Below, piece after piece: positions 22,318 to 26,768 of a DNA stretch of 43,563 nucleotides (positions within the stretch are counted from its first letter, which is position 1; each line of letters opens with the position of its first letter). The stretch spans positions 85,190 through 128,752 of the forward strand of contig JBHLMG010000003.1 of assembly GCA_048938385.1 (NCBI GenBank), in the 5' to 3' direction. This DNA comes from Promethearchaeota archaeon. Lineage in GTDB: Archaea; Asgardarchaeota; Hermodarchaeia; Hermodarchaeales; Hermodarchaeaceae. The notes beneath the pieces were generated by a model. It saw nothing but the letters and a program-made list of their open reading frames with translations, was not told the origin of the DNA and searched no databases. The translations under genes and the position numbers were made by a program.

Positions 22318-23973
22318 ATGAAGAAAGGGGGTTCAAAGAGAGCGCATCGGAGGCAAAAACGCCTTGGACAATACTACACTCCTGATTGGGCAGTTGATTA
22401 CATCATCGAACATACCCTAGGTCTGACTCTTGCTGAGCACCCGGACCGCCTTCTGGGCGAGTTTTCCCTCCTAGATCCTGCTTGTGGCAATGGTGCATTT
22501 TTAGTTGGAGCGTTAGGTTTTCTAGCTCAACAAGCCGAATCATTAGACAAGATAAGAAGTAGGCTCTTGTTTCGAAGCATCATAGATAGCATCCATGGAA
22601 TCGATGTTGATCCCACCGCATTGCAAGACTGTAGACAACGCCTTGAAGAGTTAAGTCGTACCGTCCTTGGCATCGACGCAGAGTTCTCCCAAAAAATCCT
22701 CTTAGGCAATAGCCTCGTTCAAACTGATGATGCCGCTCAGACTATTTTTGGTGATAGGCTGAACGATATTCACCCCGTTGATTGGCACCGTGTATATCCC
22801 TGGGTAATGAGAGATGGTGGATTTGATGTCATCGTAGGCAACCCTCCTTTTCTCAGCACTAAGGCCATGGACCCATCTCTGAAAGACTACATTCGCCAAA
22901 AATTCCGAACTGTCCACCAGCAATTTGACATCATTATCCCTTTTATTGAACTTGGACTCCGACTCCTCCGACCCGGTGGTCGTTTAGGATTCATAATCAG
23001 TAACAAAGTCCTCGCTGCTGATTACGGGATCAATCTTCGCAAAACCTTAGTCACAAGCTATGTGATCGAACGAATGGTGGATATTTCTCATTTAAACATC
23101 TTCGAAGATGCCGCTACTTACCCCCACATCATCATCATTCGCCGACCTATTCACCCAGGGGAAACACGAAGTAACAAAATTCGCATCATCCCTCCACCCC
23201 ATCAGCCCAAAGATCTTACAAATGAGTCTGCTATAACCACGCTTCTTCCACAACAATACTATGCAAGCTTACCAAACACCATCCTCGCGCCTACTCTCAC
23301 GGAAAAAAAATTTGCCATTCTTCGGAAAATGTTCCGCAATACCACTCCCCTTGGTAAAGCGTGTAAAATTCGCTGTGGTATAGCAAAAACCGGATTCACC
23401 AAACACCTTCTCACACAAGAGAACTACGAACAGCTGAGTATGGCAAAGAAAAGAAACGCTCTGCCATTTCTTAATGCTGGTGATGTTCGCCGTTATCACA
23501 TACGCTCCAAGAAATACCTAAGCGCGAAAACAGCCCTTGTTTCTGATGACCAGTGGAAAGACTTTCAAGAACCAAAAATTGTCATCGCCGGGATGGCTAA
23601 ATTCTTACGCGCCGCATACGACACGACTGGTCATGCTCTGGGGCGAGTTTATTACATCACTCAAAACCATGCACCCTATCATCCGCTTTACCTTCTGGCT
23701 GTTCTTAATTCACAACTCATTAATGCGTATTTTACCCTCCTTTTTGTGGCCACTCATCTTCGGAGTAACTACATTCGCTACAATGCTACATACCTCGAGC
23801 AAATCCCTCTTGCCCAACCCACTCAACAACAAGAAGATGCTCTCGTAGATCTAGCTCAATATGTCCTAATGCACCCATCCTATCTGAAACGAGGATTGGA
23901 TGAGGAAATCAACCAAGTCGTTTCTGTAATATATGGACTTAGCCCTGAAGAAGTGAACCATTTCCTCGCCTAG
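22318..23973 (+). CDS. N6-adenine DNA methyltransferase, TaqI/Eco57I-like (gamma class)
   Basis: GQYYTP, motif I DPACGNGAFL, motif IV GNPPF, C-terminal TaqI_C-like YLLAVLNS. Confidence 0.92.
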   Translation: MKKGGSKRAHRRQKRLGQYYTPDWAVDYIIEHTLGLTLAEHPDRLLGEFSLLDPACGNGAFLVGALGFLAQQAESLDKIRSRLLFRSIIDSIHGIDVDPTALQDCRQRLEELSRTVLGIDAEFSQKILLGNSLVQTDDAAQTIFGDRLNDIHPVDWHRVYPWVMRDGGFDVIVGNPPFLSTKAMDPSLKDYIRQKFRTVHQQFDIIIPFIELGLRLLRPGGRLGFIISNKVLAADYGINLRKTLVTSYVIERMVDISHLNIFEDAATYPHIIIIRRPIHPGETRSNKIRIIPPPHQPKDLTNESAITTLLPQQYYASLPNTILAPTLTEKKFAILRKMFRNTTPLGKACKIRCGIAKTGFTKHLLTQENYEQLSMAKKRNALPFLNAGDVRRYHIRSKKYLSAKTALVSDDQWKDFQEPKIVIAGMAKFLRAAYDTTGHALGRVYYITQNHAPYHPLYLLAVLNSQLINAYFTLLFVATHLRSNYIRYNATYLEQIPLAQPTQQQEDALVDLAQYVLMHPSYLKRGLDEEINQVVSVIYGLSPEEVNHFLA

Positions 23974-24019: not shown

Positions 24020-24034
24020 TCTCATATCGTGCGA
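24020..24034. promoter_or_regulatory. Putative operator, copy 1 (TCTCA-tatcg-TGCGA)
   Basis: Matches three further copies at 24876-24979; lies upstream of the wHTH gene. Confidence 0.6.
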
Positions 24035-24087: not shown

Positions 24088-24750
24088 ATGTCTATGAGCT
24101 CCGAAGCAAAAAGCCAAGATGTTATTACTTTCACTCCTGAACGCATTAAAATCGTCCGGGATAAAAAAGAAATTGAAACCCTTTACGACCCCAATCATGG
24201 GCCAATCATTCGTGCTCTCCGAAAAGGGCCCATGACGGTGCGAGAACTAGAAAAAGCTTACGAAAAAGAAGCGAAAGATAAAGAAGACCTTGAAGCCAAA
24301 ACGGACAAAACCATTTATCGCTACCTCAAAGAGCTCAAGGCAGCAAACCTCGTTGTTGAAGCTGGAAAGCGCGTCGTCATCGGGAAAACCGCCACTGAAT
24401 CCCTCTTCTCCCGTACCGCTGAAGCCTTCATTGCCCATGACACAGATGAGGAGCACTGGAGCTGTGACGAAGGGAAAGCCCTTTGCGAAACGGTGGGGCT
24501 CATGCTAGCCAAATCCATGGGCAAAGACAAGCTTGACGAAAAATGTATGGAGCAATTCATGATCGATTTCGATAAAGAAGCCAGCAGGCAAACAGTCGCC
24601 GTCTTGGAAGGCGCGGACGAAAAACTCCTCGACCTGTTTGCCTCCATTGACTGGAAGCACAAAGACAAGGTTCTTTTCTATGTTGGCTGCTTATCCTCAA
24701 TTGTCCATAAACCCCAACTCATTGAGCAACTTCGGGCTTGCCTCAAATAG
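24088..24750 (+). CDS. Winged-helix (ArsR-like) transcriptional regulator with C-terminal helical domain
   Basis: IIRALRKGPMTVREL...KTIYRYLKELKAANLVVEAG...LFSRTA; ATG at 24088 or 24094 preferred over TTG 23995. Confidence 0.82.
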   Translation: MSMSSEAKSQDVITFTPERIKIVRDKKEIETLYDPNHGPIIRALRKGPMTVRELEKAYEKEAKDKEDLEAKTDKTIYRYLKELKAANLVVEAGKRVVIGKTATESLFSRTAEAFIAHDTDEEHWSCDEGKALCETVGLMLAKSMGKDKLDEKCMEQFMIDFDKEASRQTVAVLEGADEKLLDLFASIDWKHKDKVLFYVGCLSSIVHKPQLIEQLRACLK

Positions 24751-24875
24751 CCCGCTCCCCACCTCTTCTTCTTGAAAGCATTTTGCCTCTGTTTGCGTTT
24801 AACATCCGTTGGTTCTTCAATCGTGAGTAGGCGCTCTCTTTGGGGGTGTCAATAAGGTGTGCAGGGAGCCTTTTT

Positions 24876-24983
24876 TCGCTCGATGTGCGACAATTATTAT
24901 TCTATAATAAGGTAGTTTTCGCACACGATGAGAAATCTTTATATAGTTGTGTGCTATATACTGTTCTCAGCCCTTGCGAAAAC
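24876..24983 (+). promoter_or_regulatory. Promoter with three TCKCA-N5-TGMGA operator copies around a BRE/TATA (GAGAAATCTTTATATA)
   Basis: Copies at 24876-24890, 24919-24933 and 24965-24979; TATA-like TTTATATA at 24938-24945. Confidence 0.65.
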
Positions 24984-25008
24984 AAGGACATGATGTGGTG
25001 TAATAATA

Positions 25009-25131
25009 ATGTCAAAGAAGAAAATTAACTTCAGTCGGATCCCAGTGGTTGAACGAGCCGCACTCGGATGTCGGAATCCGACGGCTACACCAGGCCACCG
25101 ATTCGTCTTCACGCTCGTGACCTCTCGGTGA
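25009..25131 (+). CDS. Micro-ORF 1, 40 aa (MSKKKINFSRIPVVERAALGCRNPTATPGHRFVFTLVTSR)
   Basis: Translated by hand; SD-like GTGGTG at 24995-25000; directly downstream of the promoter. Confidence 0.4.
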   Translation: MSKKKINFSRIPVVERAALGCRNPTATPGHRFVFTLVTSR

Positions 25132-25179
25132 GGGACACGAAGAGCCGTAGAATACACATGATGAAAGTGGTGGAGAAAA

Positions 25180-25284
25180 ATGGAACAATGCAGTCTGATT
25201 CATCACCAAGAACGAATGAAAAATAAAACGCGCTACGCGGAATTGGCTTCGCAAGCTTACCTTATGCGAATCATTAACCGGTGA
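25180..25284 (+). CDS. Micro-ORF 2, 34 aa (MEQCSLIHHQERMKNKTRYAELASQAYLMRIINR)
   Basis: Translated by hand; SD-like GTGGTGGA at 25167-25174; helical, protein-like composition. Confidence 0.5.
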   Translation: MEQCSLIHHQERMKNKTRYAELASQAYLMRIINR

Positions 25285-25294
25285 TGATGGTACG

Positions 25295-25414
25295 ATGATG
25301 GGTCTTCTGGAACTCTACATCCTTGGTACCCTTCCGTTGCCCACAAGCAGTAGGTTCGAAAGCCATGATCGGCAGAACAAGGATGGAACGGTTTCAAACC
25401 TCTTGGTTCGCTAA
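25295..25414 (+). CDS. Micro-ORF 3, 39 aa (MMGLLELYILGTLPLPTSSRFESHDRQNKDGTVSNLLVR)
   Basis: Translated by hand; SD GGTGA at 25280-25284; lies almost entirely within the structured element, so may be incidental. Confidence 0.3.
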   Translation: MMGLLELYILGTLPLPTSSRFESHDRQNKDGTVSNLLVR

Positions 25415-25432
25415 GAGATTTCCAGAAGACCC
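25300..25432 (+). ncRNA. Unclassified structured RNA element (~133 nt)
   Basis: Perfect 13-bp closing stem, 8-bp inner stem, UUCG-capped hairpin; G-U pairs work on the + strand; followed by a pyrimidine tract. Confidence 0.55.
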
Positions 25433-25568
25433 TTCTTACTTCTCCTTTTAGTGCTTTTGTGGGGGTTGATGCAAAAGCTTTTTACATAGAGTGCGATTAT
25501 ATTCTTACCCTTGTAGAATATCTACGCGCACTGAGAGAACGAATCACACTTCCTAAGAGGTAATCTCC

Positions 25569-26768
25569 TTGAGTTCAAAAGTTTATTTTGGATCGATACA
25601 ACAAGGCCAAGACGCAGCCTTCGCTTCCCTAGCTGCGAAGTATGAAAAACTCCTCGAGCTTTTAGATTTCTCGACAATTAAGAAACAGGACAAAGTTGCC
25701 ATTAAAATGCACCTTGGGTTCCATGATGGCTACCAAACCGTGCCAGTCTTTTTCGTGCGACGACTTGTAAGGGCAGTGAAGAAATCGGGTGGGTGGCCCT
25801 TTGTTACCGATAACCCGACAGCCGTGTATAACGCCGCTGACCGTGGATATACGCCTGAGACTTGTGGTTGCCCTCTTATTCCAGTTGCTGGCGTAAAGGA
25901 TGGATATACGAAAAGCGTGAAAGTCGATTTCAAGAATGTTAGCCAACTCGAGATGGGTGGTGTCCTTAATGATGCTGATGTCCTGATCGATTTAACCCAC
26001 TCAAAGGGTCATGCGAACTGTGGCTATGGTGGTGCAGTGAAAAACATCGCCTTAGGAGGATATTCTGGACCTACTCGCTGGAACCGAATCCATGGAGTGG
26101 AGAATGCGTTTCCATGGTGGAATGCCAAAAAGTGTTCACCAGAACATGCGCAAAAACTCGTGGAAAGCTGCCCCTATAATGCCTTGTCATATGATAAAGA
26201 GAAGCACGAACTCCGAATCACGCGGTTTTCGTGTCATGTCGGAAACTGCACTGAATGCCTTAAAGTCGACAAAGATGTCAAGTGCTTGAATTTGCAGCCT
26301 GAGCAGTTTGAGGCGTTTCAAGAATTCATGGCGATCACAGCACACAATATCTTAGAAACCTTCGATGAAGAGAAGCGATTCTTCATAAATGTCGCCATAG
26401 ATATTACTCCCCATTGTGACTGCATGGGAATTATTCAACCCATCGTGGTTCCGCACATAGGCGTTCTTGCTAGTCGTGATATCGTAGCAATCGATCAAGC
26501 AACTTTAGATCTTATTGCTAAGGTAGGCTTGATTGAAAGCCAAATTCCTCTTTACTTCAAGCATGCGAACCTTGATCCTAAAGCAGATTTACATCCGTTC
26601 GCTCGATTGTGGGGACCGATGAAGAATCCCTATCTGGTCACCAAGCATGCTGAGAAACTGGGAATGGGCACACGAAAGTATGAACTGATCGAAGTCTTAT
26701 CTCCGGAAAAAACTTTGACAATGGAAAGACCTAAACAAGAGTTTGAACGAGCCCCCTCCTTCTACTAG
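25569..26768 (+). CDS. DUF362 family Fe-S protein
   Basis: KVAIKMHLG, LTHSKGH, GGAVKNIALG, Cys cluster, DITPHCDC, ASRDIVAIDQA. Confidence 0.88.
   Translation: MSSKVYFGSIQQGQDAAFASLAAKYEKLLELLDFSTIKKQDKVAIKMHLGFHDGYQTVPVFFVRRLVRAVKKSGGWPFVTDNPTAVYNAADRGYTPETCGCPLIPVAGVKDGYTKSVKVDFKNVSQLEMGGVLNDADVLIDLTHSKGHANCGYGGAVKNIALGGYSGPTRWNRIHGVENAFPWWNAKKCSPEHAQKLVESCPYNALSYDKEKHELRITRFSCHVGNCTECLKVDKDVKCLNLQPEQFEAFQEFMAITAHNILETFDEEKRFFINVAIDITPHCDCMGIIQPIVVPHIGVLASRDIVAIDQATLDLIAKVGLIESQIPLYFKHANLDPKADLHPFARLWGPMKNPYLVTKHAEKLGMGTRKYELIEVLSPEKTLTMERPKQEFERAPSFY

Follow-up and report, generated by a model that had tools for sequence, protein, structure and literature searches.

The gap between a winged-helix regulator gene and a DUF362 gene of a Hermodarchaeia (Asgard) archaeon (genome G000) probably encodes a repressor-controlled transcript that yields micropeptides together with an antisense RNA acting in trans. 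The probability of this reading, which takes together a single transcript, control by the winged-helix (wHTH) protein, pairing within the cell and repression of a protease, is estimated at about 60% from comparisons with related genomes. A preliminary description of the same DNA had proposed a self-contained unit of regulator, micropeptides and RNA, and the core of this idea holds, with two ORFs and an RNA in place of three peptides. An antisense role of the 3' RNA on a distant protease mRNA was not raised there; the evidence favours that role. The operator-guarded promoter and the structured 3' end that it had recognised are both borne out, the former by conservation of the TATA box and operator copies and the latter by covariation over copies.

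Short ORFs of the gap and the micropeptide family

The window, i.e. the whole stretch of DNA analysed, is 43,563 nucleotides long. In the DNA search the gap matched 12 of the 14 genomes of the same genus and no others. The gap and its candidate genes are:

24751-25568: gap between the winged-helix gene (24094-24750) and the DUF362 gene (25569-26768)
25009..25131, + strand: ORF1, basic micropeptide of 40 aa, Shine-Dalgarno sequence (SD) at 24997-25000; new Hermodarchaeia family
25180..25284, + strand: ORF2, 34 aa, SD at 25169-25172; diverged positional orthologue of a gene for a peptide of 26-27 aa

The array of three micro-ORFs (40, 34 and 39 aa), each preceded by GGTG, is present at the reported positions, and no comparable trio arose when the gap was shuffled 1,000 times with its dinucleotides kept; only ORF1 and ORF2 are gene candidates. 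Since the 16S rRNA tail in the Hermodarchaeia family is GGAUCACCUCCU, GGTG is a genuine ribosome-binding core. The reported resemblance between leaders 1 and 2 is not conserved: their 8-nt identity is confined to G000, and the relatives have GGTG, and sometimes ACA or ACAT, in common.

The dN/dS comparison with relatives supported ORF1 (0.15 versus 1.84-1.86 in its shifted frames) and the ORF2 set (0.32), shifted frames in the comparison of the two ORFs giving 0.8-1.9; the frame of ORF3 is not conserved. The window's own copy of ORF1 is also constrained (pairwise dN/dS 0.14-0.35). It terminates five codons earlier than the copies of the relatives, and the orthologues have an identical SD and start position. 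This substitution pattern and the conserved SD and start identify ORF1 as a genuine coding gene, and it belongs to a new family.

Of the 19 Hermodarchaeia genomes, 18 contain members of the family, at 1-6 per genome. With the ORF1 profile, copies were detected in 17 of the 18 other Hermodarchaeia genomes, and outside Hermodarchaeia there was a single marginal match (E 0.009) in 381 other Asgard genomes. G000 has three copies (C22, C5 and C27). The 65 distinct copies are 33-57 aa long with a net charge of +5 to +12. All of them have kept Glu-Arg, followed five or six residues later by Asn-Pro, and nearly all end with a short hydrophobic run and Arg or Arg-Arg, in some with a tail of 3-4 residues. 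Cysteine is variable, being present in 48 of the 65. No membrane-length hydrophobic helix was found in the 65 copies (maximum 19-residue hydropathy 0.38), nor a signal peptide on the family peptides. The peptides of ORF1 and probably of ORF2 appear to be short, basic and cytoplasmic. A strong SD precedes every copy. Copies occur singly or in pairs, each under a separate promoter and closed by a 3' hairpin with a U-tail, and their neighbours vary by locus; the members are therefore free-standing small genes.

Searches of the family peptide against Pfam, NCBIfam, PDB sequences and the ESM Atlas gave no significant match and no library name for the family, and in Pfam 34 members had no match at E ≤ 2. 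Two long matches from a search of 1.8 billion proteins (P0004 and P0019) were rejected as unrelated Cys-repeat proteins, and no relative was found in viral contigs. The AlphaFold model of the peptide, with two short helices, pLDDT 64 and a best fold Z of 2.7, was uninformative, and the predicted complex of the wHTH dimer with ORF1 scored 0.00, which is evidence neither way.

For ORF2, a counterpart of 26-27 aa was found at the same position in 11 relatives, nearly all closing with a hydrophobic stretch and Arg-Arg. The SD, the ATG start and the position are maintained in these relatives, which supports the gene as such; the peptide of the window scored only 1.7 bits against their profile, which is not significant. 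ORF2 of the window is probably translated, and as its 34-aa version has no significant match to the profile it may be drifting. ORF2 and P3, a third peptide of the relatives (see below), look like truncated, divergent paralogues in the ORF1 family.

In the region of ORF3 the third codon positions are the most conserved (0.62 versus 0.54 and 0.47), and in all 13 orthologues a matching start is lacking and the frame is shut after 4-15 codons. On this conservation pattern, ORF3 is not a gene. The TGATG noted ahead of it exists, as part of an ATGATG motif conserved where the structured RNA has its 5' edge; the GGTG overlaps the stop of ORF2. An ORF beginning at this ATGATG in another frame is open in some relatives; it was discarded, being broken in other relatives and interrupted by a stop codon in the window.

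Structured RNA at the 3' end

The region that had been read as ORF3 contains the following elements:

25285..25450, + strand: RNA A, structured non-coding RNA of ~150 nt, spanning the former ORF3
5' edge of the structured RNA, + strand: UGAUG motif
25300-25312 / 25420-25432, + strand: terminal stem, enclosing a large loop
25328..25358, + strand: seed, loop segment antisense by complementarity to the leader and start of a subtilase mRNA (G000 C2:88893-88918, + strand)
25397..25417, + strand: second conserved loop motif, CCUC-rich, with a local UUCG hairpin in the window
25433-25450, + strand: U-rich tail

The terminal stem was 96.9% paired over 32 copies with two-sided changes at four of ten pairs, a level reached by none of 500 shuffles (slid controls 27-55%), such scores being inflated by related sequences. 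G-U pairs occur, and therefore the + strand is the folded one. The distance between the stem arms occurs in all three frames. This covariation shows that the 3' region forms a structured RNA that has been conserved. The spacer ahead of it is ~50 nt shorter in the window than in the relatives.

The 48 matches to a covariance model are spread over 17 of the 19 genomes, and 38 of them, training copies included, lie behind family ORFs. The remaining ten were held-out matches at a beta-lactamase-family hydrolase locus and bear the same seed and loop motifs; eight of them start at the stop codon of the secreted hydrolase and two lie where the gene body is deleted. The loop motifs kept by these held-out copies show that RNA A is an independent module whose loop sequence is conserved regardless of pairing within the RNA. 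At L138 and L139 (G013:C446 and G011:C7), where the hydrolase body is deleted, the promoter, start region and 3' RNA are retained, and the remnant includes a 10-nt perfect complement of the second loop motif of the RNA.

Rfam gave no match for the window or six relatives, and ARAGORN found no tRNA or tmRNA in the window. RNase P RNA and SRP RNA were ruled out, as both genes lie on other contigs. A box C/D or H/ACA guide was also rejected, a conserved 3' CUGA or ACA and a long match to 16S rRNA, the rRNA checked, being absent. Inspection by eye revealed no obvious bulge-helix-bulge motif at the terminal stem, and no promoter was seen between ORF2 and RNA A. Pairing of RNA A with the leaders of ORF1, ORF2 and P3 or with the ORF1 coding region showed no cognate preference.

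Complementarity of the loop to a subtilase leader

The predicted target of the seed is the start of a gene on another contig for a 1,547-aa subtilase of the S8 family with a signal peptide and a C-terminal anchor. The site (C2:88893-88918) was found via the complement of the first loop motif, and within it the second part of the seed likewise has its complement, correctly ordered. Each of nine genomes contains the seed complement exactly once, where the subtilase gene starts, with no matches for the reversed control, and the same 26-nt leader precedes the subtilase orthologue in all nine. With the window's seed, the subtilase start ranked first of 2,266 starts (-34.1 kcal/mol, z -4.9), and with the seeds of five relatives the subtilase gene ranked 1-5. 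Other parts of RNA A ranked it 496-2024 and shuffled seeds 618-2168. Rank 1 alone proves little, since any 31-nt seed, shuffled ones included, has a top match at a similar z (-3.3 to -4.7), and the agreement among the seeds is not independent because they are homologous. The seed of the window is only partly unpaired in the predicted fold, and it is intact, although RNA B and P3, described below, were not detected in G000.

The target block is invariant at 27 of 29 positions across the nine genomes, and the two variable positions face the unpaired bubble of the duplex. In five genomes, in which the proteins have 36-66% identity, 28 of 29 positions are invariant with a run of 21 nt, compared with 13-21 of 29 and runs of 5-10 in four control leaders of mostly better-conserved genes. 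As the target is invariant, compensatory changes could not be seen. By these comparisons the loop of RNA A is complementary to an unusually invariant leader, and it is this conservation of the target that provides independent support for the pairing.

The seed has drifted in G006, G002 and G005, in which the subtilase was not found, while G011 and G013 are also without subtilase yet have kept a functional seed; these losses were assessed in genomes 74-86% complete and amount to about two events. No new target was found for the drifted seed of the three genomes. Neither the RNAs of the second genus, compared with their own subtilase leader, nor the C27, type-3a and type-2 copies matched the subtilase leader. 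For the second, CCUC-rich loop motif no conserved target was found, the matches being near control level and not orthologous. Target matches with two mismatches in another family were rejected, as they lie within an open frame and not in a leader.

The conserved AUG in the subtilase leader opens an upstream ORF of three or five codons, immediately ahead of the protease start, in five of the nine genomes (L153, L154, L157, L158 and L159), and in four genomes it is in frame with the protease. Because of these upstream ORFs, the next AUG may be the true start, in which case the target would hold its SD. The duplex spans the ribosome-binding region of the subtilase whichever AUG is the start.

Promoters, regulator and neighbouring genes

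The elements surrounding the transcript are listed below; no strand is assigned to the operator copies.

24020..24034: operator copy upstream of the regulator gene, conserved at the regulator's own promoter
24094..24750, + strand: winged-helix (ArsR-like) regulator; Pfam HTH_5 weak, E 5e-4
24876-24890 and 24919-24933: two operator copies upstream of the TATA box, seen in the sequence, with a match to the conserved pattern at 24919
24938..24945, + strand: archaeal TATA box for the small transcript; orthologues and the second genus keep TTTATA in this position
24965..24979: operator covering the predicted start of transcription, of the TCTCA-N5-TRAGA type, conserved in 11 orthologous promoters
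24972..24987, + strand: small 5' hairpin of the transcript, predicted by folding; arms differ yet pair in relatives
25479..25486, + strand: separate TATA box of the DUF362 gene, conserved in relatives, where the same operator lies behind it
25569..26768, + strand: DUF362 protein (Pfam PF04015, E 5e-31), separately promoted, in conserved synteny

The operator is conserved behind the TATA box of the unit in both genera and also at the promoter of the regulator and at the DUF362 promoter of the relatives. The wHTH gene is single-copy in G000 and lies upstream of the locus in nine loci. From this arrangement, the protein is a probable repressor of both the unit and itself, and the DUF362 gene, whose closest relatives (74-82% identity) include those of Candidatus Hermodarchaeum and Hermodarchaeota, is probably a co-regulated neighbour. 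The strict operator pattern has 14 matches in G000 with 9 expected, and hence only matches placed at promoters count. Behind a TATA box, the operator also precedes a probable MFS transporter gene (C50:2558) and a GNAT-like gene (C45:9682) in G000, both identified by inspection. The operator-bearing genes suggest a regulon of chemical or envelope stress. A sigma-70 promoter scan was discarded as unsuited to archaea.

Two further genes were seen in these surroundings. An N6-adenine methyltransferase of the Eco57I/TaqI type (window 22318-23973) is a conserved upstream neighbour of the regulator, and near a wHTH operator site of G000 an ORF with an extremely Arg-rich stretch (C50:931-1407) lies behind a beta-lactamase-like gene.

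Second RNA and third peptide in relatives

Beyond RNA A, the relatives have a second stem-clamped RNA, RNA B, followed by the separately promoted peptide gene P3 (dN/dS 0.18) with a small hairpin; neither RNA B nor P3 was detected in G000. RNA B (L003:2100-2235 and orthologues) has a stem of 10-19 bp and a loop that fits the leaders of ORF1 and ORF2, and in several genomes a poorly conserved, SD-led ORF of ~45 aa enters its 5' arm. The loop showed some cognate preference for the ORF1 leader in the relatives (permutation p 0.01, the kin not being independent), and no other target was found. Negative feedback of RNA B on the ORF1 leader is possible on this basis.

The P3 promoter of the relatives (L018:3665-3811 and orthologues) has the palindrome TTAAC-N3-GTTAA, which is also present in G000 promoters at C34:17444, C34:64400, C36:26147 and C51:29284. 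The genes bearing it were by inspection a CopA-like ATPase, a TusA-DsrE-IscS-IscU-like operon, a fasciclin/peroxiredoxin pair and a ferredoxin-like gene, and this set is a probable metal or redox stress regulon.

Proposed mechanism

A transcript of ~480 nt, from about 24968 to 25450, would have two outputs. As its motifs suggest, the adjacent winged-helix protein would keep it off via the operators around the TATA box. The 5' part would deliver ORF1, as selection indicates, and probably ORF2, and the 3' part would fold, as the covariation indicates, into an RNA in which the stem clamps the ends, the U-tail follows and the loop is held open. The loop would then pair in trans with ~26 nt of the subtilase leader, over the ribosome-binding region and the first AUG, a step for which the comparative support is strong. 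Pairing would most likely stop the synthesis of the surface subtilase: repression is favoured over activation by about four to one, since the duplex covers the start and not the 5' arm of the leader hairpin alone. Sibling RNA copies under other promoters bear the same seed.

The peptide most likely acts on nucleic acid, with its own RNA or the ribosome as a partner, although this is a guess. Action as an RNA-binding partner is given about a third of the weight, RNA release coupled to translation at the Arg-Arg stop about a quarter, and other actions the rest. Entertained only tentatively is a lineage-wide Asgard module in which a new class of basic micropeptides would act with, or control the release of, their own 3' antisense RNAs, several stress promoters each driving one unit and the sibling RNAs converging on one invariant leader, thereby switching off a surface protease.

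Alternative explanations

RNA A could also be solely a cis-acting 3' element (a stabiliser, a terminator or a fold-back onto its own mRNA start), the subtilase match being incidental or a relic. Some 3' hairpin with a U-tail lies behind every peptide gene, and in the hydrolase-locus copies pairing of the seed with the start of the host gene, 1.27 kb upstream, is feasible (z -1.0 to -3.2), but seed-bearing copies of type 1 and of the hydrolase type form far stronger duplexes with the subtilase (z -3.1 to -8.7) and the window's own leaders rank only about 650-710 for the first seed motif. Moreover, no RNA A accompanies the subtilase gene, whose leader is nonetheless invariant, and the cis reading is considered unlikely. 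More improbable is a type I toxin-antitoxin-like unit, in which the ribosome-binding site of a toxic peptide would be masked by an RNA, in the relatives RNA B. Such a unit would fit the multi-copy small ORFs, the structured mRNAs, the better pairing of RNA B with cognate than with mismatched ORF1 leaders and the lack of another RNA B target. Against it, the 65 copies lack the membrane helix that is a usual, not universal, trait of such toxins, G000 has three intact copies in the absence of a detected RNA B, and the seed of RNA A points to another gene.

Precursors of modified or exported peptides (RiPP, pheromone or archaeocin) would account for paralogous short ORFs with a conserved core, and some copies have an ABC exporter, a C25 peptidase or a GNAT beside them. 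The family peptides also loosely resemble methanobactin leaders, but DUF692 was not found in G000, no neighbour is common to all copies, a modifying enzyme is absent from the annotated neighbour families, and neither the incomplete presence of Cys nor the lack of a signal peptide fits. This option is still less probable; like the toxin-antitoxin one, it had been offered in the preliminary description and drew at best weak support. Slimmer again is the chance that the peptides are ligands or anti-repressors of the wHTH protein in a feedback loop: the gene is adjacent and the operator is in common, but the wHTH is single-copy and tied to one locus, while the peptide motif persists under other promoters at no fewer than five loci. 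The least probable of all is the suggested leader-peptide attenuator controlling DUF362. In most copies the Arg or Arg-Arg ends are separated from the stem by a fairly constant 51-68 nt, which would suit attenuation, but DUF362 is served by a separate TATA box, the gene behind many copies is convergent, the cassette of G010 has no DUF362 behind it, and in G007 a gene is inserted within the cassette.

Comparison with known systems

In the dual-function RNAs SgrS/SgrT of E. coli and sRNA154 of Methanosarcina mazei, a 5' small ORF is followed by a region that pairs with a target in trans and masks its ribosome-binding site (PMC12612679, PMC5867862). The same two features were found here in silico, with a 5' small ORF that selection marks as coding and, downstream, a segment complementary to the start of a trans mRNA. 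SgrR is a regulator adjacent to SgrS, and a regulator is likewise adjacent here. The present candidate unit has no sequence relation to these RNAs and differs in its two ORFs, stem-clamped seed loop, sibling copies at several loci and surface subtilase target. CpxQ and MicL are 3' UTR-derived envelope-stress sRNAs that lower the synthesis of envelope proteins and need RNase E and Hfq in bacteria; RNA A also lies at an mRNA 3' end, at some loci directly behind the stop codon of the secreted hydrolase.

CcaF1 (DUF1127) with the CcsR 'cuckoo' RNAs of Alphaproteobacteria joins a gene for an Arg-rich small protein to a structured 3' UTR RNA with C-rich loops (PMC8034643). The layout is similar in its basic small protein gene, 3' structured RNA with C-rich loops, duplicated loci and stress-type promoter. 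In contrast, there is no DUF1127 match here, repeated CCUCCUCCC hairpins are absent, and the seed is long and gene-specific rather than a generic anti-SD; binding of the RNA by the peptide is conjecture in the present case. The CCUCCUCCC cuckoo loops were looked for and not found, the alignments having one large loop and CCUC motifs only. By sequence the unit belongs neither to SgrS/SgrT or sRNA154 nor to CcaF1/CcsR. The archaeal intergenic RNAs sRNA41 and sRNA162 of M. mazei act in trans on mRNAs, sRNA41 by masking ribosome-binding sites (PMC5867862). They differ in lineage and sequence and are not described in that source as 3' parts of micropeptide operons. Six weak PDB matches (best E 0.34, not significant) relate a local motif, ERA-x-x-x-x-RNP, to the DNA-binding arm of HU; the family peptides are without the HU dimerisation helices, and the Pfam HU family was not matched.

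Within an incomplete coverage of the literature, no report was found on trans-acting small RNAs or a small-protein family of this kind in Asgard archaea. The locus supplies a defined RNA, a defined target site conserved in step with the pairing, and 65 distinct natural variants of a new peptide family, and with these in hand seed-based antisense control of translation in archaeal relatives of eukaryotes is testable without culturing. In this class, several conserved genes per genome are overlooked by annotation.

Other loci and additional observations

The peptide copies of the second locus (G000 C5:35850-35945, - strand, and L056-L065) are followed by a different conserved 3' element of two hairpins with overlapping alternative pairings, for which no target was found. 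Tandem peptide-RNA units were found amid multiple double-HTH Lrp-like regulators (L075-L082, L086, L087 and L090), often near a C25 (gingipain-like) peptidase, with a weak TATA box and an upstream GTGCA...TGCAC palindrome. The 16S rRNA gene of G006 (L106, G006:C71:619-4212, - strand; also L105 and L107) spans 3.6 kb and has several insertions, three of which are by inspection long enough for homing endonucleases. The 16S genes of other Hermodarchaeia are likewise interrupted.
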